From the IMG/VR virus record IMGVR_UViG_3300024348_000012: DNA of 64,000 nt; one strand, written 5' to 3'. The stretch comes from a virus. Taxonomy: Duplodnaviria; Heunggongvirae; Uroviricota; Caudoviricetes. Position numbers and translations under genes: made by a program. Under the pieces are notes generated by a model that saw only the letters and a program-made list of their open reading frames with translations, searched no databases and was not told the DNA's origin. This document shows, one piece after another, positions 12,114 through 40,998 of this stretch (within the stretch, counting starts at the first letter, position 1; every line of letters starts with the position of its first letter).

Positions 12114-12149
12114 GGGATGTCTCTTTATTGAGGTGTCCCATTTTTATTT
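12114..12149 (+). terminator. putative rho-independent terminator
   Basis: GGGATGTCTC-tttatt-GAGGTGTCCC hairpin (with G-U pairs) followed by ATTTTTATTT. Confidence 0.35.
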
Positions 12150-12178
12150 GGTAATGTCAAAAATTTATCGTATATTTA
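12147..12178 (+). promoter_or_regulatory. conserved phage promoter box (TTTG-N20-TATATTTA)
   Basis: tttggtaatgtcaaaaatttatcgtatattta; one of 7 near-identical boxes; fits the Bacteroidetes -33 TTTG / -7 TAnnTTTG architecture. Confidence 0.5.
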
Positions 12179-12195
12179 AGTATTAAAAAGAAATT

Positions 12196-12735
12196 ATGTT
12201 TGATAAGTTAGTAGATTTATTAGTTAGATTTAGTATGGATATATTGCCATTTGTTATTGTAGAACAATGGAATGGTGCAGTACAATTAAGATTTGGAAAG
12301 TTTATAAAAGTATTATATCCTGGTATTCATTTTAAGATACCATTTTTTGACTCTATTATTGAATGTCCTGTTATTACTCAGTCAGTCAATTTACCCTCAC
12401 AAACATTAACTACATTGGACGATGAAAGTATTGTATTAAAATCAATTATCAGATACAAAGTAAGTAATATACAAACGTACTTATTAAGTGTAATGCACGC
12501 AAATGATGTACTAATTGATACGACACAGGGTATAATTAGGGATGTGGTAGAAAGGACAACATGGAATAACTTAGTGGATGTAAACGAAACAATAACAAAC
12601 GAAGTGAAAGAATATGTAGTTAGATGGGGAATTGAAGTTGAAGCAGTAACAATAACAGATTTGGGGATTGTAAAAAGTTTCCGTATATTTGGAGATGAAG
12701 GACAAGGAACAAAAATATTACCAAACGATATATAA
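12196..12735 (+). CDS. SPFH/band-7 (stomatin/prohibitin-like) domain protein
   Basis: N-terminal hydrophobic anchor, then VEQWNGAVQLRFGKFIKVLYPGIHFKIPFFDSI...TLDDESIVLKSIIRYKV, typical of the SPFH core. Confidence 0.65.
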   Translation: MFDKLVDLLVRFSMDILPFVIVEQWNGAVQLRFGKFIKVLYPGIHFKIPFFDSIIECPVITQSVNLPSQTLTTLDDESIVLKSIIRYKVSNIQTYLLSVMHANDVLIDTTQGIIRDVVERTTWNNLVDVNETITNEVKEYVVRWGIEVEAVTITDLGIVKSFRIFGDEGQGTKILPNDI

Positions 12736-12932
12736 TGGATAAGAGATACGCAAAACAAATAATACAATGGGCAGAGGAAGCAAAAGAAACCTTAACCATT
12801 CGTAAAGAAATTATAATAGATGAAAATGTTACCGATGAAAAATTAGGTAATATTATTCGTATGATGTATAAAGCAAAAGTGGAAACACAAAACGAAACAA
12901 TTTTAAAAACAAAAGAAAACACAAGATTATGA
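12735..12932 (+). CDS. hypothetical small protein
   Basis: 65-aa ORF, ATG overlapping the previous stop. Confidence 0.35.
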   Translation: MDKRYAKQIIQWAEEAKETLTIRKEIIIDENVTDEKLGNIIRMMYKAKVETQNETILKTKENTRL

Positions 12933-13123
12933 AAAAATGGGAAATAGCAAACAATAGAACACAAATAAATAAAGATATAGTAAATGTATTACCCTTTATT
13001 AAAGTATGGTATAGTAAAAATTACTTTTTTGAAACAGGAGTATTCACACCAGCATTTGGAATAGCAATTAGCTGGTTAAAATGGAATTACTATTTGACAA
13101 TTCAACAAGGATATAAAAAATAA
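12929..13123 (+). CDS. hypothetical small protein
   Basis: 64-aa ORF, ATGA overlap. Confidence 0.35.
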   Translation: MKKWEIANNRTQINKDIVNVLPFIKVWYSKNYFFETGVFTPAFGIAISWLKWNYYLTIQQGYKK

Positions 13124-13126
13124 ATA

Positions 13127-13327
13127 ATGAAATCGGAAAAACTTATGGCACTTTACAAACGAAAAAAAGAATTGCAAGAGCAAATCATTTATTGGGAGAA
13201 ATTTCAGGGAGTGAATTGGCTAGGTAAATGGGGCAGAAGTGTTAGGTTAGAGGTATTAAAAGAAAAGTTTGCAAAAATAGAAAAACAAATAACAAAATCA
13301 AAAAACAAAAAAGACGAAAATAAATAA
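13127..13327 (+). CDS. hypothetical small basic protein
   Basis: 66-aa ORF. Confidence 0.35.
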   Translation: MKSEKLMALYKRKKELQEQIIYWEKFQGVNWLGKWGRSVRLEVLKEKFAKIEKQITKSKNKKDENK

Positions 13328-13330
13328 GTT

Positions 13331-15890: not shown

Positions 15891-16982
15891 ATGAAATGTA
15901 AGTTTTTAAGACAGAGTGGATATGATATTAAAGTTAATGAAGGCAATTTACAAACATTCCCAAAATGGGCCGGTGCTACTATTGAAAATAATGATGAAAA
16001 TGTTTTGATATTTTTTAACAATTTAATGGAGTTATCTAATTCTAATTTATTAAAAGAATTAAAAATTAAATTTGACAAAGGGGGTTTAAAAAGGTTAATT
16101 TTATTTTCAGAAGATATGGATTTTATTCAAAATCAATCTACAATAGATACAATTGTTAAAAATTTAAATGATATTTTTCAAAATCATATTGATAAAATTA
16201 AAATAACATTATTGAGTAAAAGTTGGAATTTAAATTGGGGTAATATATTCACATCAAATAATCTGGGATGTTTGTCTATGGTTATTGATAGAAATATTCA
16301 ACTGGGTAAAAATTATAATTTATTAAATTTAAATAGGGAAAAACATTTTATTACAACACAAAATGCACCTCGTGCGAGTAGAATGTATCTTTATGATTTT
16401 TTAATTAAAAATAATCTTTTAGATAAATTTGAATATTCATTTTTTGTTACTCAAAATAAAGAGTATTTAATGTGGCAAGATGTTATTGGGGGAACTGATA
16501 ATTTACAACCATTAACAGGTAAGTACCTCAAAAAGAATTTTGATAACGAAAATATTGTAAATCCATTAGAAGATTTACAATTAGTAAATTTTACAAAAGA
16601 ATTAAATACATATTTTTCAGTATTAATGGAAACTTCATATTGTACTAGTGAAAATTATTATGGAATATCCGAAAAATCGTTCAAAGGTTTTTCCATAAAA
16701 AAACCATTTTTATTATTTGCATCCGCAGGAGCATATAAAGGTTTAACTGAACTGGGATTCAAAATGTATGATAATATTTTTGACCTATCTTATATGCATA
16801 AAACATCTCATTATGAACGTTTAGAAGGATTTACAAATGAAATAAAACGAATATGTGAATTACCAATTAATGAAATTCAAAAATTATATATTGATAATTT
16901 GGAAACAATAGAATATAATTACAATAATTTAACAAATCTTATTGAAAAAGAAAAAAGTGATTTCTTAAAATTGTTTTGGTAA
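15891..16982 (+). CDS. fucosyltransferase-like glycosyltransferase, paralog D
   Basis: LNTYFSVLMETSY...GISEKSFKGFSIKKPFLLF...GFKMYDNIFDLSY aligns with paralogs A-C; flanked by 138-bp direct repeats. Confidence 0.5.
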   Translation: MKCKFLRQSGYDIKVNEGNLQTFPKWAGATIENNDENVLIFFNNLMELSNSNLLKELKIKFDKGGLKRLILFSEDMDFIQNQSTIDTIVKNLNDIFQNHIDKIKITLLSKSWNLNWGNIFTSNNLGCLSMVIDRNIQLGKNYNLLNLNREKHFITTQNAPRASRMYLYDFLIKNNLLDKFEYSFFVTQNKEYLMWQDVIGGTDNLQPLTGKYLKKNFDNENIVNPLEDLQLVNFTKELNTYFSVLMETSYCTSENYYGISEKSFKGFSIKKPFLLFASAGAYKGLTELGFKMYDNIFDLSYMHKTSHYERLEGFTNEIKRICELPINEIQKLYIDNLETIEYNYNNLTNLIEKEKSDFLKLFW

Positions 16983-16989
16983 ACCGAAT

Positions 16990-17127
16990 GTAGAAACAAT
17001 ATTACTACATAGAAAACAAACCTCAAACGGAATGTATATAATGGAATATAACAATAAAACACTTTGGTTAAATACGAATGAGTTTGACACAATGGATAAG
17101 ATTATAATATGTATGCAAACAATATAA
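16990..17127 (+). pseudogene. 3' fragment of an MLTIKN-family gene (duplicate of 15752-15889)
   Basis: About 88% nt identity to the 3' end of ORF 15620-15889. It encodes VETILLHRKQTSNGMYIMEYNNKTLWLNTNEFDTMDKIIICMQTI with no N-terminal part. Confidence 0.5.
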
Positions 17128-17131
17128 GGAT

Positions 17132-17443
17132 ATGTTAACAATAAAAAACTTAAATAAACTAAACAATATAGAATTGGGTAAGAAAAACTTTTATGTAGCA
17201 AGAATTGAGGAACAATTTAGTATTGATAATATAAGTTTAACTGCAAGTCAACATCAATACAAATTTGAATTATCTAATATGAAATACGCAATAACAGTTA
17301 CATTGGATAGGGGGCCCAAACAATTTGTAGTTTCACATTATAAATTAACTAGTAGTACGGGAAAAGTATTGTATATAACAGGAAAAGAAATTAGCAACAT
17401 GGACATATTCATTGATAAGTTAAGATTTGTCGCATTAGGATAG
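17132..17443 (+). CDS. hypothetical protein, MLTIKN-family member
   Basis: N-terminus MLTIKNLNKL. Confidence 0.45.
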   Translation: MLTIKNLNKLNNIELGKKNFYVARIEEQFSIDNISLTASQHQYKFELSNMKYAITVTLDRGPKQFVVSHYKLTSSTGKVLYITGKEISNMDIFIDKLRFVALG

Positions 17444-17444
17444 A

Positions 17445-17476
17445 TTTGGCAAAGTGAAAAATTTGTCGTATATTTA
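17445..17476 (+). promoter_or_regulatory. conserved phage promoter box
   Basis: tttggcaaagtgaaaaatttgtcgtatattta; ends 5 nt before the UvdE ATG, so the transcript is likely leaderless or nearly so. Confidence 0.5.
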
Positions 17477-19787: not shown

Positions 19788-19818
19788 AAGGGGCGGGGGT
19801 TGGGGGCGAGTCGTTTTA
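19788..19818 (+). repeat. G-tract element GAAGGGGcGGGGGTTGGGGGcgaGTCGTTTT
   Basis: Striking G-runs in an AT-rich genome; a near-identical copy lies in inverted orientation at 28709-28746. Confidence 0.6.
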
Positions 19819-21336: not shown

Positions 21337-22029
21337 ATGAATACGTTTTTTACATATCCAATAGAAGTGAACGAAATCAAACCTATGAAGCAGTGTACTA
21401 CATGCAATGAAATCAAACCAATAGAGGAATATCATATGCACCCATCCTCAAAGGGGCATATAAGATGTGAATGTAAAGTATGTGTTAATAAAAAAAATAG
21501 AATTAAGTTACAAAAGATATATGATAACCCCGAACGATTAGAACGATATAAACAACAAAAGAGAAATCATTTTTTAAGGAATAAGGATAAAGCAGAGTTT
21601 AGAGTTAATCATGGTATAAGGAAATTAATTATAGCGGGATTTAAGAGGGCAGATAAGGGTAGAAAGGTTATAAGAAAAATGGATAAGACTGAAAGCATAT
21701 TAGGTTGTAGTGTAAATTTCTTTGTTGAATATATTAAGTCTCAATTAACAGACAATATGACAATGGAAAATTATGGTAGTGTATGGATATTAGGACACAT
21801 AGTTCCACAGGGATATTCATTAGATGATCCAGATAAAATAAATTTACTTAATCATTATCTAAATTATGCTCCACAAAATAAATTAGAGAATGGTGAATTG
21901 AATTGTAAAATATGGAAACAAAAGTTTACTGACTACCATGCAATGAAATATAAAACAATTATAGATGAATATAATTTGTATCAATCCAATAGATTAATTA
22001 GTGTATCAAACAATACTATATCAAAATAA
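21337..22029 (+). CDS. HNH-type (homing) endonuclease, putative
   Basis: N-terminal Cys cluster CTTCNEIKPIEEYHMHP...CECKVC plus C-terminal GHIVPQGYSLDDPDKINLLNHYLNYAPQNKLEN (H...N...N/H spacing of the HNH motif). Confidence 0.5.
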   Translation: MNTFFTYPIEVNEIKPMKQCTTCNEIKPIEEYHMHPSSKGHIRCECKVCVNKKNRIKLQKIYDNPERLERYKQQKRNHFLRNKDKAEFRVNHGIRKLIIAGFKRADKGRKVIRKMDKTESILGCSVNFFVEYIKSQLTDNMTMENYGSVWILGHIVPQGYSLDDPDKINLLNHYLNYAPQNKLENGELNCKIWKQKFTDYHAMKYKTIIDEYNLYQSNRLISVSNNTISK

Positions 22030-22035
22030 ATAAAT

Positions 22036-22102
22036 TAGTGTCAATTAGTGGGTAAAAGTGGTAAATTGTGTTAAAGAGTGTCAATAAGTGTTATGTGTCA
22101 AT
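22036..22102. repeat. iteron-like GTGTCAAT repeats (x3) with AGTGG repeats
   Basis: GTGTCAAT at 22038, 22078 and 22095 in the noncoding region 3' of the HNH gene. Confidence 0.5.
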
Positions 22103-22496
22103 ATTAAATCGTTACATACTTACACACTACAAAGAAAACAAAACACTATAAAAGTATATCAGTCAATCAGTTTATATCCCACCTTTGCGTTCTGCGAAAC
22201 AATTTTTTTCTGCAATACAAAACAATTGACAAAAAGAATTTCTGCGATTAGTGATTTGAACAGAAAATAATTCGGTGAGTGGAAAATAAATCGCCTGAAA
22301 CCCTTACTGGCTGTGGATTGCCGGACATGCGCACTCTAACTATTAAGATACGAAAAATAATTGACATTGCCAAATCCTTACTGGCATTGAGTTTCATCTA
22401 ACATATCAATTGATTCATTAGATATTATTTAATTCAACGTGGAGTTAAGTTTGAAAATATCTAAAATAACTAAAATTCATTAGAAATTTATTAAAT

Positions 22497-22555
22497 GCAT
22501 AACTCGTTGATAATCAATGTGCCGGCATAAACTACTGGAAATCAACGAGTTATGC
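22497..22555. repeat. perfect 15-bp inverted repeat GCATAACTCGTTGAT...ATCAACGAGTTATGC (about 29-bp spacer)
   Basis: Seen directly; the left arm plus AATCAAT recurs at 22612-22631; CCTTACTGGC is also repeated at 22302 and 22376. Confidence 0.6.
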
Positions 22556-22651
22556 CACAAAAATTCTTTATTGAGTATCAGTGCTTTACATATATTTTTT
22601 TTTGTTATGCCCGTAACTCGTTGATAATCAATAATAATTCTTTTCAAAACA

Positions 22652-22682
22652 TTTGGCCAGAATAAAATATTGTCGTATCTTT
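22652..22682 (+). promoter_or_regulatory. variant of the conserved promoter box
   Basis: tttggccagaataaaatattgtcgtatcttt with the same TTTG-N20-TA spacing. Confidence 0.4.
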
Positions 22683-24085: not shown

Positions 24086-24403
24086 ATGAATAGAAAAAAA
24101 CGAAACGATAGAAACCACATAGTATATGAGATAGTCAATACTGAAAATGGTAAGAGTTATATTGGTATTACTGCCGCAATTGGTAGACGCTTCCACTACT
24201 CTGCTAAACTAAGATTACAAAAGCACTTTAGTCGTGCACGTAAAGAGAATAAGAATTGGGCACTATATAACGATATGAGAGAGTATGCACAAGAGGTGTA
24301 CGATTTGTTTATCGTTAAAGTAATAAGAGGTAAAGCTGCCGCACACCAATACGAAACGAAGCAATTGCAAAAGTTTCATTATGAATTAAATAGTACACAC
24401 TAA
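24086..24403 (+). CDS. GIY-YIG domain nuclease
   Basis: HIVYEIVNTENGKSYIGIT (the GIY...YIG motif) followed by conserved Arg (RRFHY) and Glu. Confidence 0.65.
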   Translation: MNRKKRNDRNHIVYEIVNTENGKSYIGITAAIGRRFHYSAKLRLQKHFSRARKENKNWALYNDMREYAQEVYDLFIVKVIRGKAAAHQYETKQLQKFHYELNSTH

Positions 24404-24786: not shown

Positions 24787-24818
24787 ATTTGGTAATGTCA
24801 AAAATTTGTCGTATATTG
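24787..24818 (+). promoter_or_regulatory. conserved phage promoter box
   Basis: tttggtaatgtcaaaaatttgtcgtatattgt. Confidence 0.5.
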
Positions 24819-24929
24819 TATATAACAAAGAGACATTAACAATAAAGATACAAGCGAAGCAAGGGTAAAAGGAAGCCGCCCTTATGGAGCTTGACTATTA
24901 TAAACATTAAAGGCAACCAAAAAAACAAC

Positions 24930-25238: not shown

Positions 25239-25244
25239 TTTAGT

Positions 25245-25400: not shown

Positions 25401-25479
25401 ATGTTGTTAGCATATTGGTTACTTTACAAATGGTTATTCTCCGATTTACTTTACAAAGAAAGCAACAACACTTAACGAA

Positions 25480-25507
25480 GTGGCTCCCCAATAGAGCCAC
25501 TTTTTTT
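25480..25507 (+). terminator. rho-independent terminator
   Basis: GTGGCTC-cccaata-GAGCCAC followed by TTTTTTT. Confidence 0.6.
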
Positions 25508-25524
25508 ATAACCAAAACAATGGA

Positions 25525-28708: not shown

Positions 28709-28746
28709 AAACGACCTTTCCCCCAACCCCCACACCCCTTCATATG
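28709..28746 (-). repeat. inverted copy of the G-tract element (C-rich on + strand)
   Basis: The minus strand reads GAAGGGGtgtGGGGGTTGGGGGaaagGTCGTTTTTT, near-identical to 19788-19818. Confidence 0.6.
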
Positions 28747-28767
28747 ACGAAACTCATATAATGTATA

Positions 28768-28799
28768 TTTGAAAATCTAAAATATTTATCGTATATTTA
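28768..28799 (+). promoter_or_regulatory. conserved phage promoter box
   Basis: tttgaaaatctaaaatatttatcgtatattta; about 70-nt leader to the 28870 gene. Confidence 0.45.
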
Positions 28800-30327: not shown

Positions 30328-30494
30328 AAAATATTAATTATGGAAATTATACAAAACGAAATCGTTGAATTAACAATTACAGAGAAATCAGAAATTGCAA
30401 CAATATTTCAAAATATTATAACAAATATAAAAACTGATATTACAAATCAGTAAAAATATTTGGTAATTCAATTTTTTTTTATTATATTAGTGTT

Positions 30495-30770
30495 ATGGGA
30501 TTTAATTTAAAAACTATATCACAATCTTGGTTTGATTCGTACTTTGGTACCGATTCTCAAAGGGAATTGGCTAAAGAAAGATTAGGCATATGTGAAACTT
30601 GTCCGTCAAAAAAAGAACTTTTTAAGAATCAAAATTGGTCAGTTGTATGTGGTGAATGTGGTTGCCCAATTAATAAAAAAATATTTTCTAAAAAAATAAA
30701 AGAATGTCCATTGGACAAATGGAAAGAAGTTGATTCTAATTCTATTATTTTCTCAAAAAAAGTTATATGA
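30495..30770 (+). CDS. Cys-rich zinc-ribbon-like small protein
   Basis: CETCPS...CGECGCP...KECP. Confidence 0.45.
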   Translation: MGFNLKTISQSWFDSYFGTDSQRELAKERLGICETCPSKKELFKNQNWSVVCGECGCPINKKIFSKKIKECPLDKWKEVDSNSIIFSKKVI

Positions 30771-31264
30771 TAGAATCCATATATGGTTTTTTAAATGATG
30801 TGGAATTGAGTTTAGTAGATACATTTTGTTTAAATTTTAAACAAGAAGATAATCCACGTCCCACTAATTATTACAATAGAATGTTTCTAAATAAAGAAAC
30901 AGATTTAATTGATTATCAAAATAAAATAAAGAACCACTTATTCCAAAAATATGGTATTACATATGAAGTAGAAGGTATTTGGATAAATAAAGTAACACCA
31001 GATACAAATAAAGATGACGAATTTCATTTAGATAATAATGCGTTAACAATCGTTACTTATATAAATGATAATTTTATAGGAGGGGAATTTGAATATTTTA
31101 TATTAGGAATTAAACCAAATCAAAAAATAAATCCAAAAAGAAATTTAAGTTTAATTACAAACGATAAATTACCACATAGAGTATTGCCTGTAATTACAGG
31201 AGAAAGATATTCAATTGTGGTTTTTTGTGTTATACCAAATAAAGATAAAAAAACAATGTTATGA
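30767..31264 (+). CDS. 2OG-Fe(II) oxygenase, prolyl-4-hydroxylase-like
   Basis: HLD (HxD), GGEFEYF, second His PHRVLPV, and GERYSIVVF (the 2OG-binding Arg-x-Ser). Confidence 0.6.
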   Translation: MIESIYGFLNDVELSLVDTFCLNFKQEDNPRPTNYYNRMFLNKETDLIDYQNKIKNHLFQKYGITYEVEGIWINKVTPDTNKDDEFHLDNNALTIVTYINDNFIGGEFEYFILGIKPNQKINPKRNLSLITNDKLPHRVLPVITGERYSIVVFCVIPNKDKKTML

Positions 31265-31875
31265 TAAAGATTAATATCAACAATGAAATTGATATATATA
31301 AAACTACATTAGATTTTAATTCAAATTTTGATAAAAATTTATTTATTGATAAATTAAAAATTGTTGATACATTAGTAGATGCGTCCCTTCCAGCTAAAAA
31401 AACACCAGGTAGACAAGCCGCTTTATCTGAAATGTATATGCCTGAATTAAATTTTATAAAAGATAATATATCTAATTTATTATCAACGGAATTTAATGTT
31501 AGTAATAATTTTATTATGAAAACATGGGTTTATTATAGTGATAGTGATAATGGTTATAGTGGATACCACACACACGAAACATTGCACCCAAGGCCAACAA
31601 CGGCCGTTGGTAAGGTAAAAACGAATTATACATTTACATATTACCTACAAATGCCAAATAATCTTAAAAATGATGAAGGAAAGTTATTTTTAAAAACGAA
31701 ATCTGGATTTGAATTTGGTATATTACCAGAAGAAGATGATGTTTTTATATTCCCGGCCGACCTAGAACATAGACCTGAAACCAATCCCAATTCAACTAAA
31801 TCCAGAATTGTTATTGCCGGTAACACTGCTTTTTTTGATGAACATTTGAGAAAAACAGAAAAAAGCGTTTTATAA
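31261..31875 (+). CDS. hypothetical protein (possible cupin/oxygenase-like)
   Basis: His-rich motifs YHTHETLHP ... DLEHRPE ... RIVIAGN; weak. Confidence 0.35.
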   Translation: MIKININNEIDIYKTTLDFNSNFDKNLFIDKLKIVDTLVDASLPAKKTPGRQAALSEMYMPELNFIKDNISNLLSTEFNVSNNFIMKTWVYYSDSDNGYSGYHTHETLHPRPTTAVGKVKTNYTFTYYLQMPNNLKNDEGKLFLKTKSGFEFGILPEEDDVFIFPADLEHRPETNPNSTKSRIVIAGNTAFFDEHLRKTEKSVL

Positions 31876-33075
31876 ATGAATATCGTTATTGTAGGAGGAG
31901 GAACTGCCGGATGGATTACTTCTTTATTTTTACTTTCAGAATATAAAAATAGTAATATCACAGTTATTGAAAGTGATGTTATTGGTATATTGGGTGCAGG
32001 AGAAGGCTCAACACCACTAATGAAAAAATTCTTAAAGAAATGCAATATTGATGAAAACGATTTCATTAACAAAACGAAATCTACTTTTAAATTGGGTATT
32101 GATTTTGAAAATTGGAATGTTTGCAACAAATCGTATAAACATCCATTTATAAATGATTCCAAAGCATATCATTTTGATGCAAGACTAATTGCAGAATATT
32201 TTAAACAAATATCAATTAATAGAGGTGTAACTCACATAAATGGAATTGTAAAATCTTTTGTTCAAAATGATAAAAAAGATATTACCAATTTGGTATTATC
32301 GGATGATACAACAATACCAACTGATTTTGTATTTGATTGTTCAGGATTTCATAGATTACTAATCGGGAAATTATATAATTCAAATTGGGTTTCGTATTCA
32401 AATCATTTAAAAGTAAATACGGCCGTTCCATTTTTCTTAGATAGAACGGATACTAATATGGAATTGGATACCAAAGCAATTGCGATGGATTATGGTTGGA
32501 TGTGGCAAATTCCATTACAACATAGATGGGGATGTGGGTATGTATTTGATGGTAATAGAATAAACGAAATACAGGCCAAAGAAGAAATTGAATTAAAATT
32601 AAATAGAAAAATACAATCACCAAAGACATTAAAATTTTCAGCAGGTTATTATGATAATGTGTGGGTTAATAATTGTATTGCTATGGGATTAGCTAGTGGG
32701 TTTTTAGAACCATTGGAAGCAGTATCAATCCACATTACACTTATGGAATTGAATTTAATTAAAAACCATTTATTTAAAGATAACGATACTAATATAGTTA
32801 ATGAAAAATTTTCACAAATAATGGATGAACATTTTTTATTTATATATTATCATTATTTGTGTAATAAAAAAGATACAGAATTTTGGTCAGATTATAATTT
32901 GATTAGTGCACCATTGGAGTTACACAAATTTGTTAAAAAAGATTTAAACATATCGTTTAGTTCCGATGAGGATTATATTTCTAAATTCAAATATAATGAT
33001 GTTGTACAATATACACACTACGATTGGAAACTTATAAATGATGGAATTTTTGGTTTAAATAAATCTTTATTATGA
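31876..33075 (+). CDS. flavin-dependent halogenase (tryptophan-halogenase family)
   Basis: MNIVIVGGGTAGWITS (FAD GxGxxG), ITVIES...ILGAGEGST, the signature YGWMWQIPL (WxWxIP), and AMGLASGFLEPLEAVSIHI (the halogenase GxxSGFxEPLES block). Confidence 0.8.
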   Translation: MNIVIVGGGTAGWITSLFLLSEYKNSNITVIESDVIGILGAGEGSTPLMKKFLKKCNIDENDFINKTKSTFKLGIDFENWNVCNKSYKHPFINDSKAYHFDARLIAEYFKQISINRGVTHINGIVKSFVQNDKKDITNLVLSDDTTIPTDFVFDCSGFHRLLIGKLYNSNWVSYSNHLKVNTAVPFFLDRTDTNMELDTKAIAMDYGWMWQIPLQHRWGCGYVFDGNRINEIQAKEEIELKLNRKIQSPKTLKFSAGYYDNVWVNNCIAMGLASGFLEPLEAVSIHITLMELNLIKNHLFKDNDTNIVNEKFSQIMDEHFLFIYYHYLCNKKDTEFWSDYNLISAPLELHKFVKKDLNISFSSDEDYISKFKYNDVVQYTHYDWKLINDGIFGLNKSLL

Positions 33076-33440
33076 TTGAAACAATAAACATAAATACCAA
33101 ATTATATGTCAAATATATTGATAATATAAAAGGATTTGGTGTATTTGCAAATCATATAATTAAAAAAGACGAAATTATTGAAGATTGTTATTCTTTATTA
33201 ATTCATAATACAAATTCGGATTACGAACCTTATTATTTTTATTTTAAAGGTGACACTAAATTATTACCATTAGGATTTGGTTCTATTTATAACCATAACA
33301 ATAATCCAAATATAGCTTGGAAAATCGTAGATGATAATCGTAAAATAATTAGATTTTATGCAATAACCGACATCAATATCAATGAGGAATTGTGTCATAA
33401 TTACGGCCCTAATTATTGGAAAAATAAAAATATATTATAA
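33072..33440 (+). CDS. SET-domain protein methyltransferase
   Basis: GFGVFANHIIKKDEIIEDC...IYNHNNNPNIAW...NEELCHNYGPNYW (SET N-region, NHxCxPN-like and ELxxxYG post-SET-like motifs); about 120 aa as in viral vSET. Confidence 0.55.
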   Translation: MIETININTKLYVKYIDNIKGFGVFANHIIKKDEIIEDCYSLLIHNTNSDYEPYYFYFKGDTKLLPLGFGSIYNHNNNPNIAWKIVDDNRKIIRFYAITDININEELCHNYGPNYWKNKNIL

Positions 33441-34123
33441 TGAATACACTTTGGACATTTGGTGATAGTTTTACATTTGGTCATGGTTGTAGAGAAGATT
33501 GTAATTCATATACCGTAGATGATTATTATGGTTACAAAAAAGAAGGAGATGACATCTGGCCCAACCATTTAGGTAATTTGTTAAATTGTAAGGTTAGTAA
33601 TTTAGGAAAAAACGGAGTATCAAATGATTATATTTTAGATGCAATAATAGATAATTTTGATTTTATAAAAGAAAATGATTATATTATAATAGGAAAAACA
33701 TTCCATGGTAGAATTGAAGTACCTTTTAATAATAAAATTTATAAATCCTTTGCACATTATGAGGGTGGTAAGATAGATGAAAATACTAATAGTAAAGATA
33801 TATGGATAAAAAATGAATTTAAAGATTTAAACAAAGAAGTGATAGAAACAATTATTAATTTTCAATATTATTTTTCAAATGAATTATTTTATAAAGAACG
33901 AAATAATAAAAGATTTGAATTTATTAAGAATAGATTGCATAATGAAAAAAATGTAAAGTTTTCTTATATATGGGGAATAGAAGAAGATAAAAATTTTTAT
34001 CACACATTTCAACAAATAATACAGGCAACTAATGGCAAAGTAATTGATACACATTTTTCTTTTAAAGGTCACTTAGATTTTGCACATTTTATTTATAATA
34101 AAATTAATACCAAAATAATATGA
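33440..34123 (+). CDS. SGNH/GDSL-family hydrolase
   Basis: N-terminal TFGDSFTFGHG (GDSx block I), conserved Gly/Asn blocks and a distal DxxH-like motif. Confidence 0.55.
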   Translation: MNTLWTFGDSFTFGHGCREDCNSYTVDDYYGYKKEGDDIWPNHLGNLLNCKVSNLGKNGVSNDYILDAIIDNFDFIKENDYIIIGKTFHGRIEVPFNNKIYKSFAHYEGGKIDENTNSKDIWIKNEFKDLNKEVIETIINFQYYFSNELFYKERNNKRFEFIKNRLHNEKNVKFSYIWGIEEDKNFYHTFQQIIQATNGKVIDTHFSFKGHLDFAHFIYNKINTKII

Positions 34124-34665
34124 TTAAAAAAAAATTGGGGTTTACAACATATTGTTATGATGAATTTATAACAATAGAAGAACAATCTGAAATTAAAAAA
34201 TGGGCATTAGATAATGAAAATAAAATGCCACCGAATATGTCTGGCCCGTATAGAAGATTTAGTAGATTGGATAGTTTTAATAATATACCGAATATAATAC
34301 ATACTATAAAACAAAGAGTTATAGATGTTGAAAATATAAAAAATGTAATGGAAGCACCACAAAATGCCGATTGGGTAGGTATTCAATGGGAAAATGCCTT
34401 TGTTGAACCACATTTAGATGACAATGGCAACAATAAAAATTATTATACCAGACGATATAATATACTAGTATCATATCCTGAAGAAGGAGGCCAACCTATA
34501 TATGGTAATGAAATTTTAGAAGTTAAAGAAAGAATGATGTGGAGATGTGATGCGGGTTTAATTGAACATTCTAGTATACCAAATAAAGGAAAAATACCTA
34601 GAATTAATTTGTCTTTTGGATTTTTAATGCCAATAAAAACTACAACTAAAAAATCTTTATTATGA
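34120..34665 (+). CDS. 2OG-Fe(II) oxygenase, P4H-like
   Basis: EPHLDD (HxD), GGQPIY, IEHSS (distal His), RINLSF. Confidence 0.55.
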   Translation: MIKKKLGFTTYCYDEFITIEEQSEIKKWALDNENKMPPNMSGPYRRFSRLDSFNNIPNIIHTIKQRVIDVENIKNVMEAPQNADWVGIQWENAFVEPHLDDNGNNKNYYTRRYNILVSYPEEGGQPIYGNEILEVKERMMWRCDAGLIEHSSIPNKGKIPRINLSFGFLMPIKTTTKKSLL

Positions 34666-35222
34666 TATATCAACAAAAAATATTTACAAAAGAGGAATGT
34701 CAAACCATAATAGAGTACCATAAAAAATATACCGACTTGGAAGGTTGGTTTCCCTCAAAATACATTGACGGCCAACGAATAAAAGATAACCACAATCTAA
34801 TGGCATATGAAGTATATAATATACTTAACAATGCAGAAACAAATTGGTTTTTTGTAAAATTATTTAATTGGTTTAGTGAAGTTAGCGGAATTAAAATTGA
34901 TGAAACTAATAAGTTACCAAAATGTACCTTACACAGATATACCATTGGTGACCATTTTGCAAAACATATAGATTTAATGAAGGGATACGAAGAAAGAAGA
35001 TATAATTCAGGCATACAACTGAATGATGAATACGATGGTGGTGAATATGTGACTTGGGATGCGCTGGGTAAGGAAATATTAATATCAAAAGAACCTGGCA
35101 CAGCTGTAGCGTACAGTTCTACAGTTGAACATGAAATAAAAGAAATAACAAAAGGAGAGAGATGGTCTATTGTGATGCCCATAACAAAATACAATATAAT
35201 TGAAAAGAAAAGTTTTATATAA
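34662..35222 (+). CDS. 2OG-Fe(II) oxygenase, P4H-like
   Basis: KHIDLMK (HxD), YDGGEYVTW, VEHEIK, GERWSIVMP. Confidence 0.6.
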   Translation: MIYQQKIFTKEECQTIIEYHKKYTDLEGWFPSKYIDGQRIKDNHNLMAYEVYNILNNAETNWFFVKLFNWFSEVSGIKIDETNKLPKCTLHRYTIGDHFAKHIDLMKGYEERRYNSGIQLNDEYDGGEYVTWDALGKEILISKEPGTAVAYSSTVEHEIKEITKGERWSIVMPITKYNIIEKKSFI

Positions 35223-35893
35223 TGTCAATATTAATTAAAAATGATATAATATGGGTTTCAATTCCAAAATGTGCATCAATGTCAATAGAGGATGCGTTGT
35301 TGAATTCTAAGTTGGACATAGAGAGACATTCCTATGCAATTAAAAGTGAACCACTACATACACACATTGGTATCCGTAAATTAAAAGAAGAATTTGGTGA
35401 TAAAAAAACTATATGTATAAAAAGAGATTGGTTTGAAAAGTGGGTAAGTGCCATTCAGTTTTGTTTTGAAACCATAATACCAACCGATGGAAATCTACCA
35501 ATCAAAAAATGGGAAGATATTGATAATGATTTTATTTATTCAATATTTACGGATGAATTTATAAATTTATTATATTCCGAAAAAACGGATTCATTAAATG
35601 AGTGTTATAGTAGATTGATTGTAAATGGAAAAGTAACAGAAACAAATAGATTGTCCGTACTATTTTCCCAAAATTATTGGAAAGAGGATAACAAATGTGA
35701 TTATGAATTTGACATAAAAGATATGGATAAATTTGTTTCTTTCATAGAACAAAAATATGGGGAAAAATTAATAATTCGTAAAATAAATGAAAATCCAAAA
35801 ACAAAAAGTAAATTAGTTTTAAATGATGAACTAAAAGAGTTTATTTGGCAAAAGTTTGAAAAAAGATTTTCTAAAAAAAGTTATTTATTATAA
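35222..35893 (+). CDS. sulfotransferase-like protein (putative)
   Basis: N-terminal IIWVSIPKCASMSIEDAL resembles the PAPS 5'-phosphosulfate-binding loop (PKxGxT) of Sulfotransfer_2-type enzymes; weak. Confidence 0.35.
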   Translation: MSILIKNDIIWVSIPKCASMSIEDALLNSKLDIERHSYAIKSEPLHTHIGIRKLKEEFGDKKTICIKRDWFEKWVSAIQFCFETIIPTDGNLPIKKWEDIDNDFIYSIFTDEFINLLYSEKTDSLNECYSRLIVNGKVTETNRLSVLFSQNYWKEDNKCDYEFDIKDMDKFVSFIEQKYGEKLIIRKINENPKTKSKLVLNDELKEFIWQKFEKRFSKKSYLL

Positions 35894-36384
35894 TGTTTAC
35901 TAAAGAAGAATGTGAAAGAATAATTTATTTAGCTCAGTCATCTTTAGTGGATTCTAAATTATATTTTAAATATGATGATAATATAAAATATAAAGTATCT
36001 AATATCAAAAAAGATGAAACTACGGATTGGATATTTGATAAAATGCTTGTATTTTTTACAAACAGAACTGGTATTAAAATAAAAAAATCATTGAATATTT
36101 TACATGTTCACAATTATAAAACAGGAGATTATTTTAAAAAACATAGAGATGATTTACACCCAACACAAATACACAATATAGGTGTTTGTTTAAATGATGA
36201 TTATGTAGGTGGTGAATTTATTTTATATGAACCATATGAAATATTACCAAAAAAACAAGGTGAGATATATACATTTGAAAGTTTAAGATTACATGAAGTT
36301 AAAAAAATAGAAAGTGGTGAAAGATGGAGTATAATTGCATTTTTACATAATGAAAATTTAGAACTAAAAAAAACACTATTATGA
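35893..36384 (+). CDS. 2OG-Fe(II) oxygenase, P4H-like
   Basis: KKHRDDLHP (HxD), YVGGEFILYEP, LRLHEVKKIESGERWSIIAF. Confidence 0.6.
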   Translation: MFTKEECERIIYLAQSSLVDSKLYFKYDDNIKYKVSNIKKDETTDWIFDKMLVFFTNRTGIKIKKSLNILHVHNYKTGDYFKKHRDDLHPTQIHNIGVCLNDDYVGGEFILYEPYEILPKKQGEIYTFESLRLHEVKKIESGERWSIIAFLHNENLELKKTLL

Positions 36385-36914
36385 AAATCGGTATAACTGG
36401 ACACTCTAAAGGATTGGGAGAAGCAATTTATAATAAATTAAATAAAATGAATGAAGTTATTGGATTTAGTAGAACAAATGGATACGATATTCAATCACCA
36501 AATAATATAATAGAAAAATTAGAAAATTGTGATATTTTTATAAATAATGTGTATTATGAAACCCATCAATCTAATTTATTTTTTAAATTATTTCAAAAAT
36601 GGAACGATTTAGAAAAAACGATAATTAATATAAATAGTAGTTCTATACATCAATCGGGCGCATGGAATCCTTTATATGTTGCAAACAAAAAACATTTAAA
36701 AGATATTACACAATCTCTAATTGATAAATACCCACAGAAAAAATGTAGAATTATTAATTTAAATTTGGGTACATTAGATACACATAAAAACTTTGAAACT
36801 TTTAATAAAATCGAAGTATCTAAAGTTGCGGAAGTAGTGGAATGGTGTATAAATCAACCACATGGTATTGAAATACAAGAATTAACAATATTACCAACAA
36901 CACAACTAAAATAG
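36381..36914 (+). CDS. short-chain dehydrogenase/reductase-like NAD(P)-binding protein
   Basis: MKIGITGHSKGLGEAIYNKL (TGxxxGxG Rossmann motif); short (177 aa). Confidence 0.45.
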   Translation: MKIGITGHSKGLGEAIYNKLNKMNEVIGFSRTNGYDIQSPNNIIEKLENCDIFINNVYYETHQSNLFFKLFQKWNDLEKTIININSSSIHQSGAWNPLYVANKKHLKDITQSLIDKYPQKKCRIINLNLGTLDTHKNFETFNKIEVSKVAEVVEWCINQPHGIEIQELTILPTTQLK

Positions 36915-36943
36915 ATGTTATTGACACTTGAAAAAATAATAAT

Positions 36944-37762
36944 ATGAAAATTTTAAAATATTGGAAGCCTGACGGGTTTGAAATTTCCTCTTACAAATAC
37001 TCATTAAAAGAAAAAGCAAATCAAATACATACAACGTGTGGTGAAGATAATACTAATCTATGTACCTACACCTACAATGAATTAGGATTTAGGGGTGACA
37101 GTATAAAAAAAGAAGGGTTTAAGGTAATGTCATTAGGTTGTTCAATTACCGAAGGGGTTGGTGTAAATGATAATGAAACGTGGACATCTCAATTCACAAA
37201 TTTAGTACCAAATTCAGTAAATTTAAATTTTGGTGTTTGTGGTAGAAGTAATGATTTTATAGTAAGGTGTTTGTTAAGTTACTATGATTTAATTAAACCA
37301 GATTTGGTATTAATTATGTATACATACTCAACTAGAAAAGAAATATATACAAATGATGGGGGAGTTGAACCATATATGGCAACATCTGCATGGGGATATA
37401 TGCAAGAAACTGAAGATGGTAGACTTATTCAAAAAAATTTACTTGAAATACAAAACGATAATGAAGATTTTATAAATTGGTATAAAAATCATCAATTGAT
37501 AAAATTATTTTTAGAATCTAAAAAGTGTAATTTTATTTGGAATGGTAGTTTGATTCGTTCTAATTATAAAGATGAATTTAGATATGATGGTGATTTTTTC
37601 TTAAATGTATTAGATAAAGGAGTGGATAATAAACATGCAGGCCCAAAACACCTTAAAAATTATGCAACAAAGTTATACGACCATATCAATAATAATTTTC
37701 CTCATTTTTTATTAAATGATAAAACTAAATTAAATATTAAAAATAGTAATAAATTAATATAA
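36944..37762 (+). CDS. SGNH-hydrolase-like protein (putative)
   Basis: FKVMSLGCSITEGVGVN resembles SGNH block I (GDS replaced by GCS); distal His near C-terminus. Confidence 0.4.
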   Translation: MKILKYWKPDGFEISSYKYSLKEKANQIHTTCGEDNTNLCTYTYNELGFRGDSIKKEGFKVMSLGCSITEGVGVNDNETWTSQFTNLVPNSVNLNFGVCGRSNDFIVRCLLSYYDLIKPDLVLIMYTYSTRKEIYTNDGGVEPYMATSAWGYMQETEDGRLIQKNLLEIQNDNEDFINWYKNHQLIKLFLESKKCNFIWNGSLIRSNYKDEFRYDGDFFLNVLDKGVDNKHAGPKHLKNYATKLYDHINNNFPHFLLNDKTKLNIKNSNKLI

Positions 37763-38324: not shown

Positions 38325-38356
38325 TTTGGTAATGTCAATTATTTGTCGTATATTAG
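38325..38356 (+). promoter_or_regulatory. conserved phage promoter box
   Basis: tttggtaatgtcaattatttgtcgtatattag. Confidence 0.5.
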
Positions 38357-38384: not shown

Positions 38385-39032
38385 ATGAAACAAAAGACAG
38401 AACAAGAATTGAAAGCAAATTATGACCGATTTATAGGTATAATTAAGAAGTATTTTAAAGGAGAAAGATTGGAGAAATTACTCCATATGTATTCCGAAGA
38501 AGAATTGGGTGTAAATTTAACCCTATCACCGGCGTCCGGCTCAAAACACTATCATAATGGGTATATAGGTGGGTATATTGACCACATCTTTAATGTATGT
38601 AAGAACGCTCTTAAAATGAGAGACCTGTTCGTAATGCAAGGTGGAGAGATTGATTTCACCGAAGAAGAATTGATATTTAGTTGTCTACATCACGACTTAG
38701 GAAAGTTGGGTATTAAAGGTGAATTACATTACCTACCAAACCAAGAAGAATGGTCTCAAAAGAAATACGGAACTTTATTTGTTCGTAATGAGAAGATACC
38801 TTATATGACTTTAACCGATAGAACTTTCTTTACACTAAACGACTATGGTATTACTTATAATGAGAAAGAGTATTTTGCAATCAAACTTACTGATGGTATG
38901 TATGACGAAGATAATCAAAAGTATTTAGCAGGTCACGACTTAAAGAAACAATTAGTTTATAAGTTACAATTTATTATGCATTGGGCAGACCATATGTCTA
39001 CAATCATTGAAAGACAAGATAACGTAATTTAA
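38385..39032 (+). CDS. HD-domain phosphohydrolase
   Basis: HYHNGYIGGYIDHIF ... LHHDLGKLG (H...HD...D metal-binding motifs). Confidence 0.65.
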   Translation: MKQKTEQELKANYDRFIGIIKKYFKGERLEKLLHMYSEEELGVNLTLSPASGSKHYHNGYIGGYIDHIFNVCKNALKMRDLFVMQGGEIDFTEEELIFSCLHHDLGKLGIKGELHYLPNQEEWSQKKYGTLFVRNEKIPYMTLTDRTFFTLNDYGITYNEKEYFAIKLTDGMYDEDNQKYLAGHDLKKQLVYKLQFIMHWADHMSTIIERQDNVI

Positions 39033-39152
39033 TGACACATTTTCCGATTTGTAACAAAGTAAGTGTAAAATTGTCATAACTTTGTAACGGAGTAAGAGAT
39101 GGTATAGTATTTGGACTATATAGAATATTATTAACTAAAAAACATTTATATT

Positions 39153-39530
39153 ATGTACATGATTGATTACAGTAAGTTATTTGAAGAGTTCTTTAATGAA
39201 CCAAAAACAACAACTTATGTTCCAAACAAATTCGCAGTAGACATTAAAGACGAAGTCGCGAGTATTGCACTATCAGTATTAGGACACAACCCAGAGGATA
39301 TTGAAATTAATTGCTTTGAGGACAAGATTGAAATTAAAGCTAAAAAAACACAAGAGGATAAAGAAAGTCCTTTTAATCAATTGGTTTCGGATATTGAAGA
39401 AAGAATCCAAGTAGGCAAAAACTTTGATGGTAAAAAAGCAAAAGCTGAGATTAAAAATGGAATTCTCTTAATTACACTTGAAAGAAAAGAAGAGTCCAAA
39501 CCAAAAAAATTAACCCCAAAATTAGGTTAA
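39153..39530 (+). CDS. small heat-shock protein (Hsp20/alpha-crystallin domain)
   Basis: AVDIKDEVASIALSVLGHNPEDIEINCFEDKIEIKAK ... AKAEIKNGILLITLERK (the ACD AxxxNGVLxIxxPK-like end). Confidence 0.55.
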   Translation: MYMIDYSKLFEEFFNEPKTTTYVPNKFAVDIKDEVASIALSVLGHNPEDIEINCFEDKIEIKAKKTQEDKESPFNQLVSDIEERIQVGKNFDGKKAKAEIKNGILLITLERKEESKPKKLTPKLG

Positions 39531-39555
39531 TTCAGTTATTTTTTGTATATTACAA

Positions 39556-39586
39556 AGGTAGAAGAGTCATTACTTCTACCTTTTTT
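39556..39586 (+). terminator. rho-independent terminator
   Basis: GGTAGAAG-agtcatta-CTTCTACC followed by TTTTTTT. Confidence 0.6.
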
Positions 39587-39608
39587 TATTTATTAAATAT
39601 TTATAAAC

Positions 39609-39785
39609 ATGATATACAACGAAAAAATACAAATGTTATTGGAATCTTTAGACGGTAAGTTGAGGATTTTGCAAAATGGAATTACAGGTGCACAACATAT
39701 GTCACCTTCTGAAGCTCACACTACATTGGAAGATGCAAGAAAGATAGCTGAACGAATTTCCGAATTAACACGAATCAATAGATAA
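39609..39785 (+). CDS. hypothetical 58-aa protein
   Basis: Small ORF filling the gap; its stop abuts the next ATG. Confidence 0.3.
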   Translation: MIYNEKIQMLLESLDGKLRILQNGITGAQHMSPSEAHTTLEDARKIAERISELTRINR

Positions 39786-40964
39786 ATGAATTGGCTTAAA
39801 TATTTAGTCGGATTTTCTGCACTAATTATCGCCGGTTGTGCAGCATTTTTCTCCGTAACAGGATTGGGTGTTCTATTTAGTGGAGCATCAACCGCAGTAA
39901 TGGTAATGGCCGGGTCATTGGAATTTGCTAAATTAGTAGCAGCAACCTATCTTAAACAAAAATGGGATGAAATTAAGGGTTTTAATAAGTGGTATTTAGT
40001 ATCTGCTGTTGCATTACTAATGTTAATCACATCTGCAGGTATCTTTGGTTACCTTTCTAATGCTTTTCAGGCACAATCACTTAAATTACAACAGGTAGAT
40101 AGGGAAATTATGGTTCATTCTACTAAAATTGACCAAAATACTACTCAAATCACTCAATTATCAACACAAATTAGTGAGTTTAATAAAAATCAAGGTAAAA
40201 TATTAGATGGTGGTAAGGTAAATTCTCGTCTTATTCGTTCAATAGACAATAGAGATAAAGAAATTGCTAAAATTAACAAAAAAATTAGTGATTTACAAGA
40301 CCAAAACGCAAAAGAAAACGAAAAAATCAACGAAATTAAAACTACTAATATAGATTTAGAAAAAGAAGTAGGTGGTTTTAGGTTTGTAGCAGAAGCATTC
40401 GGTGTAGAACTGAAAAATGTTGTAAAGTTCTTCATATTTTTGATTGTAATCGTATTTGACCCATTGGCAGTTGCTTTAATTATCGCATTTAATGGTATGG
40501 TTGGTGAAACAAAACGAAAACAACGAAAACTTTTAGGTGAAATTATGGAAAATGATGAAAAATTGAGCTTATACGATAATTTGGATGATTTGATGGAAGA
40601 AAACTACAAAAATTACCAAATATACGGAGATAATGGAAAATATTCTACAAAAGAGGATAAAAATGAAGTTATAGTGGAAAATATTCTTAACGAAACGGAA
40701 AAAAATGAGATTAACGAAAAAAAAGAAGATACAAATGTTGAATCTACTGATGTTGTGGTTGATGTTACACCTGCTTCTGAAATTATAGAAGAAACCCCAT
40801 CATTAAAATGGGAAGAATACATGCATCCAGAATTCCAATGGCAAAAAAGAAATTTGTGGATAAATAACCCAAAGGCAGTTAATTATTGGTTAAAATCAAA
40901 AGGTGGAACCGTTAGAGAATTGGCAAAATTCAGAAACGAAGAAGAAAATATCAAAACTTATTAA
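39786..40964 (+). CDS. membrane protein with central coiled coil
   Basis: Three N-terminal TM helices, long coiled-coil (heptad-like QITQLSTQISEFNKNQ...), another TM (VVKFFIFLIVIVF), acidic C-terminus. Confidence 0.45.
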   Translation: MNWLKYLVGFSALIIAGCAAFFSVTGLGVLFSGASTAVMVMAGSLEFAKLVAATYLKQKWDEIKGFNKWYLVSAVALLMLITSAGIFGYLSNAFQAQSLKLQQVDREIMVHSTKIDQNTTQITQLSTQISEFNKNQGKILDGGKVNSRLIRSIDNRDKEIAKINKKISDLQDQNAKENEKINEIKTTNIDLEKEVGGFRFVAEAFGVELKNVVKFFIFLIVIVFDPLAVALIIAFNGMVGETKRKQRKLLGEIMENDEKLSLYDNLDDLMEENYKNYQIYGDNGKYSTKEDKNEVIVENILNETEKNEINEKKEDTNVESTDVVVDVTPASEIIEETPSLKWEEYMHPEFQWQKRNLWINNPKAVNYWLKSKGGTVRELAKFRNEEENIKTY

Positions 40965-40967
40965 TTA

Positions 40968-40998
40968 TTTGGTAATTTAGAATAATTTTCGTATATTA
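40968..40998 (+). promoter_or_regulatory. conserved phage promoter box
   Basis: tttggtaatttagaataattttcgtatatta; ends 5 nt before the ATG at 41004 (leaderless-type). Confidence 0.5.

Follow-up and report, generated by a model that had tools for sequence, protein, structure and literature searches.

Promoters read by the primary sigma factor of the Bacteroidetes carry a TTTG element at -33 and a TAnnTTTG element at -7 (Bayley 2000 and Chen 2007, as cited in PMC6847099 and PMC9723704). In such promoters, TTTG or TTG stands about 19 to 21 nt ahead of the -7 element, and transcription begins 4 to 5 nt past that element. In the host promoters of Flavobacterium johnsoniae, T-12, A-11, T-8, T-7, T-6, and G-5 are nearly invariant, the -33 element is weak, and AT-rich motifs lie near -18 and -28 (PMC6847099). 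Among phage promoters, the early promoters of T4 have a consensus that extends past the elements UP, -35, TGn, and -10; its middle promoters combine a MotA box at -30 with sigma appropriation (PMC2988021). Conserved early promoters are also part of the promoter-early stem-loop (PeSL) cassettes that occupy the variable, non-structural genome part of T4-type phages (PMC2839356, PMC4122927). Such a cassette has a terminator stem-loop immediately ahead of its promoter and a Shine-Dalgarno sequence with the start codon at its 3' end; the cassettes flank indels or replacements between close relatives, and mini-circles are excised between tandem ones. Here, we analyzed a 30-bp box that recurs in a stretch of 64,000 nucleotides (the window) of the Caudoviricetes virus record IMGVR_UViG_3300024348_000012, and that a preliminary description, made from the letters of the stretch, had interpreted as a promoter. 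We consider it probable, on comparative grounds, that the boxes are early or middle gene promoters read by the unmodified polymerase and the primary sigma factor of a Bacteroidota host, and most likely they are what a large uncultured group of Flavobacterium-type phages uses as its standard promoter for early or middle genes. From the comparisons below we infer the start of transcription at the boxes, the polymerase and sigma factor reading them, and their timing class. No earlier description of these promoters was found in the literature searched.

Copies of the box and their start-site geometry

All seven copies listed in the preliminary description exist, the fourth beginning at position 24788 rather than 24787. 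A search with the full 30-mer and up to three mismatches returned those at 12147, 17445, 24788, and 38325, against a chance expectation of 0.00 in the window. The bipartite core TTTG-N17-TCGTAT matched the window nine times, against 0.16 matches expected, and none of 100 shuffles reached nine. These matches correspond to the seven reported sites, a minus-strand site at 22374-22348, and a minus-strand site inside a gene (63598-63572), the last being a probable chance match. A position-weight matrix (PWM) scan likewise gave the minus-strand copy (22374-22344; score 38.9) and added weaker sites at 30459, 39522, 3900, and 12660, so that the seven sites stood but did not exhaust the copies. The spacing of the core is exact, with seven plus-strand matches at N17 and none at neighboring spacings, and TTTG-N20-TA is present in all eight strong copies. 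The pattern TTTG-N20-TAtaTTt, which had been called invariant, is constant in its spacing but not in its final T, that base being T in four of the eight copies, A in three, and G in one.

The window has a GC content of 29%, and all open reading frames (ORFs) chosen as likely genes lie on its plus strand. Intergenic DNA makes up 4.8% of the window, and all strong copies of the box fall there. The plus-strand copies begin 1 to 120 nt past the preceding stop codon (often 1 to 5 nt), and each of them is co-oriented with the next ORF and lies upstream of it, as had been described. The likeness between copies is restricted to ATTTGG...TATATT and ends at the box edges, the flanks being unrelated, which rules out segmental duplication as the origin of the copies. 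Near-identical spacers are found at 12147, 24788, and 38325, with that of 17445 resembling them less closely. This likeness probably comes from AT-richness, from a few preferred positions, and from shared ancestry or the copying of one strong promoter version, and a second protein-binding site is not invoked for it. Homogenization of all boxes inside one genome was rejected by inspection, as orthologous boxes across genomes are more alike than the different boxes of one locus; the GTTGGTTAATTCAGTT box type is constant across loci.

In Flavobacterium psychrophilum, the -7 box TAnnTTTG spans positions -12 to -5 (PMC9723704); therefore, the predicted start site lies 36 nt downstream of the box's first base and 12 nt after TA. 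This position coincides with the A of the ATG at 17481, 30495, and 41004, and leaders of 13 to 106 nt are predicted for the other copies. Upstream of orthologs of the UvdE gene that follows box 17445, the distance from the TAT[AC]TT hexamer to the ATG was 6 nt in 22 of 49 cases and 7 nt in another 4, so that 26 of the 49 keep a box-to-ATG distance of 5 to 6 nt. When 234 unique contexts were considered together, the hexamer ended 5 to 7 nt before the ATG in 51 and otherwise at least 17 nt before it, with only five cases at 8 to 16 nt. This bimodal distribution fits a real start site 12 nt downstream of TA, and the mRNAs from 17481, 30495, and 41004 would be leaderless; approximately 5% of mRNAs are leaderless in the phylum (PMC9723704). 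The intergenic and co-oriented placement, the conservation at orthologs described below, and the bimodal ATG distance lend comparative support to the interpretation of the boxes as promoters.

As we understand it, a box would have three working parts, namely, A-TTTGG as an extended -33 element, a spacer that is rich in AT and constant in length, and a T-run followed by the extended -7 element TCG-TAT(A/C)TT, with transcription starting about 12 nt downstream of TA. Like the Bacteroidetes primary-sigma promoters, the boxes have TTTG, a 20-nt gap, and TA..TT, together with AT-rich blocks near -18 and -28 and the same ATG geometry, and TATATTTG emerges in the profile of relatives. They differ in that most window copies lack T-6 and G-5, in that the -33 element is extended to an invariant A-TTTGG, and in that an invariant TCG, of which there is no mention in PMC6847099 or PMC9723704, stands directly upstream of TA. 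The T4 early promoters offer a second parallel. The phage of the window is a T4-like myovirus relative (gp6, gp20, and gp23 homologs occur in its relatives), and in both systems many closely similar, near-optimal host-type promoters with an extended consensus precede non-structural genes that are early in T4 and putatively early here. Unlike in T4, the host polymerase is of another type, the box has TCG in place of TGn, and leaderless mRNAs without a Shine-Dalgarno motif are predicted.

Conservation of the box among relatives

A 23-base version of the box, TTTGGNAANGTNAANNATTTNTCGTATATT, occurs at more than 117 IMG/VR loci, which is a lower bound. Among 185,579 bacterial and archaeal species genomes, the same pattern was found on one contig, of 8.9 kb, belonging to a metagenome-assembled genome. 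Because the pattern is present at many IMG/VR loci and on a single contig in bacterial and archaeal genomes, we regard the box as a phage feature and not a host consensus. Approximately two thirds of the matched IMG/VR loci align to the window at 70 to 99% nucleotide identity; the remainder have only the box in common with it, and some of these box-only loci are other parts of the same contigs. No close deposited phage was found by megablast with a 20-kb query, and blastn with the box and its flank gave chance-level matches only. The nearest homologs of the baseplate wedge protein belong to Microcystis phage Mel-JY01 (41% amino acid identity) and Flavobacterium phage vB_FspM_immuto (38%), referred to below as immuto.

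UvdE relatives are found at more than 595 IMG/VR loci, and an unbiased test used 80 loci fetched by the UvdE protein instead of by the box, with 65 to 97% amino acid identity to the window protein. The TAT[AC]TT hexamer was present in 49 of 53 unique UvdE upstream regions. In the profile anchored on this hexamer (n = 49), TTTGG occupies positions -24 to -20, with G at -21 in 48 of 49 sequences, T is found at -14 in 42 of 49, and TTTCG at -5 to -1. Downstream, 31 of the 49 sequences have T at +6 and 28 have G at +7, and these two bases complete the Bacteroidetes TAnnTTTG element. The pattern TTGG-N16-TCGTAT gave 45 unique boxes on the gene strand in the UvdE loci and none on the other strand.

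The conserved middle of the box had been taken as a sign that an additional regulator binds there. At UvdE, however, the spacer appears to evolve nearly neutrally: in ortholog pairs at 60 to 70% amino acid identity, identity of the 16-nt spacer was 0.55, compared with 0.47 at fourfold synonymous sites, a random expectation of 0.42 from the spacer composition, and 0.865 in the box ends. In some relatives (L168, L172, and L195), the spacer consists of a GC-rich hairpin followed by a T-run, with TTG inside the hairpin. The spacer is likewise unconserved in phage immuto, and its AT-rich blocks in the window match host-promoter motifs (PMC6847099). An extra regulator is thus not supported by the spacer. 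Residual constraint is seen in the T at box position 11, in the T-run before TCG, and in the spacer upstream of the HD-like phosphohydrolase (HD) gene, and because of it a lineage-specific factor may act on the spacer.

In the first 150 kb of phage immuto, whose host is Flavobacterium sp. LMO8, the gene strand has 24 matches to the pattern TTG-N17-T[CT][GT]TAT[AC]TT and the opposite strand has 2. A block of small ORFs at 60 to 76 kb, in which each ORF has its own promoter-like copy, accounts for twelve; most of the remaining ones precede DNA-metabolism genes, and two are within the structural block. The immuto consensus, aGTTGC-N16-TC(G/T)TAT(A/C)TTtaggtat, has the same geometry as the window boxes. 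Its spacers are mutually unrelated, with neither a common spacer nor a T at the position equivalent to the mid-spacer T, and several of them, such as TTGCCCCTTCGGGGGCTATTTCTTATCTT, have the form of a terminator-like hairpin.

A second motif, ATATTTAT(A), is found in immuto 20 to 35 nt ahead of the genes for terminase, portal, sheath, tube, and hub, with 58 plus-strand and 18 minus-strand matches. The window has 12 plus-strand matches and 4 minus-strand matches, located 12 to 44 nt before gene starts; plus-strand sites lie at 8685, 26888, 28826, 39597, 48298, 56034, 60703, 62691, and 63918. The motif precedes the window genes at 26900, 39609, 48332, 56056, 60732, and 62706, mostly large ORFs of the baseplate-containing right end (48 to 63 kb), and is probably a late promoter. 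Because the box and ATATTTAT precede different gene sets in both phages, two promoter classes with different gene sets appear to be common to the window phage and immuto. It had also been proposed that the boxes form one temporal class, which is plausible, as they end at 41 kb, before the structural genes, and these carry ATATTTAT.

Sites of the form TTG-N17-nCGTATATTTG, most of them ending in TAnnTTTG, are also present in Mel-JY01 (L203) at 111415, 129549, 129953, 130033, 130174, and 135112, including a divergent set at 129.5 to 130.2 kb. Either the motif lacks specificity for Bacteroidetes, or the assignment of this phage to a Microcystis host deserves re-examination.

Host and polymerase

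The host of the window phage is probably a Flavobacteriia-like member of the Bacteroidota, as suggested by the element shared with Flavobacterium phage immuto, by TAnnTTTG in the ortholog profile, and by the translation signals. Shine-Dalgarno motifs precede 4 of the 95 window genes, compared with 11.7% in the control, and A is enriched at -3, -11, and -12 before the gene starts; this combination matches Bacteroidetes translation signals (PMC6847099). A Bacteroidetes host had been deduced from the ends of the box. The host agrees with our data, but the box ends are not proof of it by themselves, since a sigma-70 geometry fits them too and T-6 and G-5 are mostly lacking.

With regard to the polymerase, T-12, A-11, T-8, and T-7 are invariant in the window copies and nearly so in the F. 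johnsoniae host promoters. The canonical host -7 motif TAHHTTTG occurs 49 times on the plus strand and 60 times on the minus strand, nearly always inside genes, and no separate textbook host promoter class was seen in the window. A generic sigma-70 scan showed no enrichment (114 sites against 129.6 expected and 145 against 147.4) and was uninformative, the boxes themselves scoring 9 to 10 of 12. The boxes are the only candidate promoters before the non-structural genes of the window, and for this reason the unmodified host polymerase would read at least some of them. Neither sigma factor nor helix-turn-helix, MotA, or AsiA families were detected in the 64 window ORFs scanned (50 with Pfam and 14 further ones with PHROGs only, ORFs shorter than 100 amino acids and the rest of the genome being left out). 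The first 150 kb of immuto have no annotated sigma factor or phage-type polymerase, bar a doubtful "subunit N", and no annotated helix-turn-helix protein, MotA, or AsiA.

Several points weigh against reading by an unmodified host polymerase of a Bacteroidota host. T-6 is present in four of the eight window copies and G-5 in one, whereas both are nearly invariant in F. johnsoniae, and TTTGG and TCG are invariant in the box, whereas the host -33 element is weak (PMC6847099). Because of these differences, the box does not qualify as a textbook host promoter, and its reading could require a modified polymerase. TTGGTA-N17-TATATT also fits the sigma-70 geometry, with 9 to 10 of 12 matches, and the cultured phage that comes closest in its baseplate protein is listed for Microcystis. 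The spacer is not wholly free, as 43 of the 45 unbiased boxes retain the T at position 11. At the HD gene, spacer identity was 0.65 to 0.71, against 0.50 to 0.52 at synonymous sites, a rough figure, since 3 loci were mis-anchored and 22 had no hexamer nearby. Moreover, it is from sequence that we infer promoter function and start sites for this phage, and the choice of early over middle is suggested only by analogy and by the lack of another promoter type before the non-structural genes.

These departures from the host consensus would be expected if the boxes were middle-class promoters dependent on a phage activator or a remodeled sigma factor, in the manner of T4 MotA and AsiA, that reads TCG or the mid-spacer T(C/A)AAA. 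This possibility, which takes up the regulator of the preliminary description, is also favored by the mid-spacer T (kept in 42 of 49 sequences of the UvdE profile as well), by the HD-gene spacer, and by the recurrence of one spacer version before many non-orthologous genes in the IMG/VR loci. Like a T4 middle promoter, the box combines a phage-specific conserved sequence with a downstream host-type -10/-7 element; unlike in T4, that upstream sequence is itself host-like (TTTG) and lies at the host position, and the scanned ORFs gave no MotA or AsiA homolog. The near-neutral UvdE spacer, the immuto copies that keep both ends with neither a common spacer nor an equivalent T, and the GC hairpin spacers of some relatives argue against an activator, as do the lack of another promoter type that could serve as a true early class and the absence of sigma, helix-turn-helix, MotA, and AsiA families from the window ORFs scanned. 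We therefore consider such an activator unlikely.

The CGT of the -10 region could instead be the cue for a phage sigma factor or RNA polymerase, or for a host sigma factor of the extracytoplasmic function (ECF) type. A conserved -10 CGT is typical of ECF-type promoters, such as motif SM6 of F. psychrophilum (PMC9723704), and the box is nearly absent from bacterial genomes. However, the ECF promoter architecture (-35 AAC, 16 to 17 nt, -10 CGT) was rejected, as the box has CGT but no AAC, with an invariant TTTGG in its place. TA..TT(TG) matches the primary-sigma -7 box, and the annotation of immuto and the scan of the window described above offer no candidate sigma factor or phage-type polymerase apart from the doubtful "subunit N". 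A dedicated sigma factor or polymerase of this sort seems very improbable.

Read as promoters of the host polymerase, the boxes would give a promoter definition (A-TTTGG, 16 AT-rich nt, TCG-TAT(A/C)TT, and a start site 12 nt after TA) for a large, abundant, and nearly unannotated group of freshwater myoviruses, and would tie these phages to Bacteroidota hosts. The box and the ATATTTAT motif together would make operons and timing classes predictable from sequence, and leaderless phage mRNAs are predicted in a phylum in which such mRNAs make up about 5% (PMC9723704). The boxes could also serve as strong, compact promoters in genetic tools for Flavobacteria. They do not represent a new kind of regulatory system, as extended-consensus phage promoters are well known. 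The analysis also yielded a late-promoter candidate and a conserved, putative control region of 620 bp that has two divergent boxes.

Gene exchange, individual copies, and neighboring features

As in PeSL cassettes, the boxes are conserved, putatively early promoters among the non-structural genes, where the genome is variable. One cassette at least (UvdE) has been exchanged with a junction inside the promoter, and a terminator hairpin is fused to the promoter in immuto and some relatives. In contrast to PeSL, a stem-loop is present at one of the eight window boxes (12147 only), the hairpin of the relatives lies inside the spacer instead of upstream, the window boxes have no Shine-Dalgarno element, and no segment is flanked by two boxes. 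The boxes other than 12147 either begin 1 to 5 nt past a stop codon or lack a hairpin. As both the stem-loop and the Shine-Dalgarno element are lacking, membership in the PeSL class was rejected; three boxes abut an ATG without a leader.

The exchange of genes raises the question of whether the boxes are conserved chiefly as portable recombination homology that shuffles gene cassettes, as in the PeSL precedent (PMC4122927), with promoter activity being secondary. In dozens of relatives, UvdE stands behind a box of the 40968 type, between the gene at 39786-40964 and that at 41004, and not, as in the window, behind box 17445. The left UvdE junction falls inside the shared TCGTATATT, and an insertion of 1.55 kb (15893-17444) reaches exactly to the 5' edge of box 17445; the sequence upstream of the HD-gene box also varies widely among relatives. 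Nevertheless, apart from this junction and this insertion, most breakpoints lie elsewhere. By a hand count, about 6 of about 40 breakpoint ends are at boxes, the boxes being 8 of about 106 gene boundaries, in a sample that is biased because the loci were chosen via the box or UvdE. No rearranged segment has a box on either side of it, the stem-loop of PeSL is found at one box in eight, and the fixed spacing, strand bias, and ATG geometry are properties of promoters and not of recombination sites. Conservation chiefly for recombination is quite unlikely in our opinion.

A combined scheme is conceivable. In it, the invariant TTTGG and TCG, the lineage-specific mid-spacer T, and the lost T-6 and G-5 would mark a promoter class that is read well only after a phage factor, injected or made very early, alters the polymerase as a Bacteroidetes counterpart of T4 Alt or MotA/AsiA, and the boxes would also be cassette exchange points across abundant freshwater phages. 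We regard this scheme as speculative and doubtful, and retain the promoter of the unmodified host polymerase as the preferred interpretation for the copies described below.

The first box (TTTGGTAATGTCAAAAATTTATCGTATATTT; 12147..12177, plus strand) has a predicted start site at 12183 and a 13-nt leader to the SPFH/Band 7 gene at 12196-12735. Directly upstream, at 12109..12144 on the plus strand, is a terminator-like hairpin with a T-run, and this is the sole box with such a hairpin. At the second box (17445..17475, plus strand), the predicted start site is the A of the UvdE ATG at 17481. Both gene labels of the preliminary description were confirmed by Pfam (Band_7, 3.9e-22; UvdE, 3.9e-66). 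Two weak plus-strand candidates lie in the left part of the window. That at 3900..3930 (PWM 17.9), before the ORF at 3948, has a spacing one base short and GTG for TCG, and that at 12660..12690 (TTTGG-N16-CCGTATATTTG; PWM 16.4) lies within the 3' end of the SPFH gene, 45 nt before the ORF at 12735.

The newly found minus-strand copy (TTTGGCAATGTCAATTATTTTTCGTATCTTA; 22344..22374) is conserved in four relatives and points away from the third plus-strand box into noncoding DNA. No ORF of at least 40 amino acids was found downstream of it, and its predicted transcript of 239 nt folds no better than shuffled sequences (z = +0.61) and has no Rfam match. The copy is part of a 620-bp noncoding region (22030-22650) that is conserved in relatives and holds a divergent box pair. 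This region also contains three copies of TAACTCGTTGAT, the core of which (TTGATAATCAA) is palindromic, as well as a perfect inverted repeat of 15 nt (22497-22511 and 22541-22555). In L172 and L195, its TTGATAATCAAT motif also stands upstream of the HD gene, and the region possibly serves as an operator or as an origin of replication. An HNH/endonuclease VII-like ORF (21337-22029) adjoins it. The third plus-strand box, a TATCTT variant (22652..22682), is abutted by an ATG at 22683; because this ATG is missing in relatives, the start codon is probably that at 22701.

The fourth box (24788..24818, plus strand) matches exactly the consensus given in the preliminary description. Its predicted leader to the ORF at 24930-25238 is unusually long, at 106 nt (24824-24929). 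After the box, within 25239-26725 and beyond, are noncoding stretches of higher GC content and terminator-like hairpins at 25477-25503, 26461-26486, and 26840-26872, and small RNAs downstream of it are possible. Rfam gave no match in the window at gathering thresholds and only chance-level matches at E values up to 1 in 21.9 to 26.95 kb, and no tRNA was found in the window. Just upstream of this box is a GIY-YIG (SegE-like) ORF (24086-24403), which, like the HNH ORF at 21337-22029, is possibly a homing endonuclease near a variable segment. The fifth box, a TTTGA variant (28768..28798, plus strand), has a predicted 66-nt leader to the ORF at 28870-30327, with an ATATTTAT motif between box and gene. 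This ORF had been labeled a Hint protein, for which neither Pfam nor PHROGs gave a match.

A new copy with TAT replacing TCG (TTTGGTAATTCAATTTTTTTTTATTATATTA; 30459..30489, plus strand) has its predicted start site on the ATG at 30495 and stands at the head of an oxygenase/halogenase cluster; the TTATTATATT variants that it shows are also seen upstream of UvdE in relatives. The metabolic cluster (30495-37762, 41596-42243, and 43202-44899) encodes four to five 2-oxoglutarate (2OG)-Fe(II) oxygenases, a tryptophan-halogenase-like protein (1e-91), a SET-domain protein, and a short-chain dehydrogenase, with a peptide deformylase and a Nol-like carbamoyltransferase further downstream.

The sixth box (38325..38355, plus strand) has a predicted 24-nt leader to the HD-like phosphohydrolase gene at 38385-39032, and boxes are also present at its orthologs. 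A degenerate copy (TTAGG... TTGTATATTA; 39522..39552, plus strand) has an intact GTTGGTTAATTCAGTTATTTTTCGTAT at this position in relatives. It is followed by a terminator hairpin (39554-39583) and, at 39597, by an ATATTTAT motif. Because the predicted start site of this box lies within the 5' arm of the hairpin, the hairpin could stop upstream read-through while RNA initiated at the box escapes. At the seventh box (40968..40998, plus strand), the predicted start site falls on the ATG of a cytidylyltransferase-like gene at 41004, and in many relatives the same box precedes UvdE instead. The labels HD hydrolase and NadM, given earlier to the genes behind the sixth and seventh boxes, correspond to weak matches, the former to a PHROG at 1.9e-7 and the latter to a cytidyltransferase or kinase PHROG.

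Four segments of the window (4523-5881, 8978-11220, 15893-17444, and 43199-45645) are absent from close relatives and therefore represent indels between lineages; all except 15893-17444 do not adjoin boxes. Despite the low GC content, C-/G-rich tracts (such as cccccaacccccacacccc and ggggcgggggttgggggcg) occur in the window at 19790-19815 and 28735-28757 and in immuto at 42434-42536. They are also found upstream of the HD-gene box in L057, L093, and L099, and several of these tracts lie just upstream of boxes.

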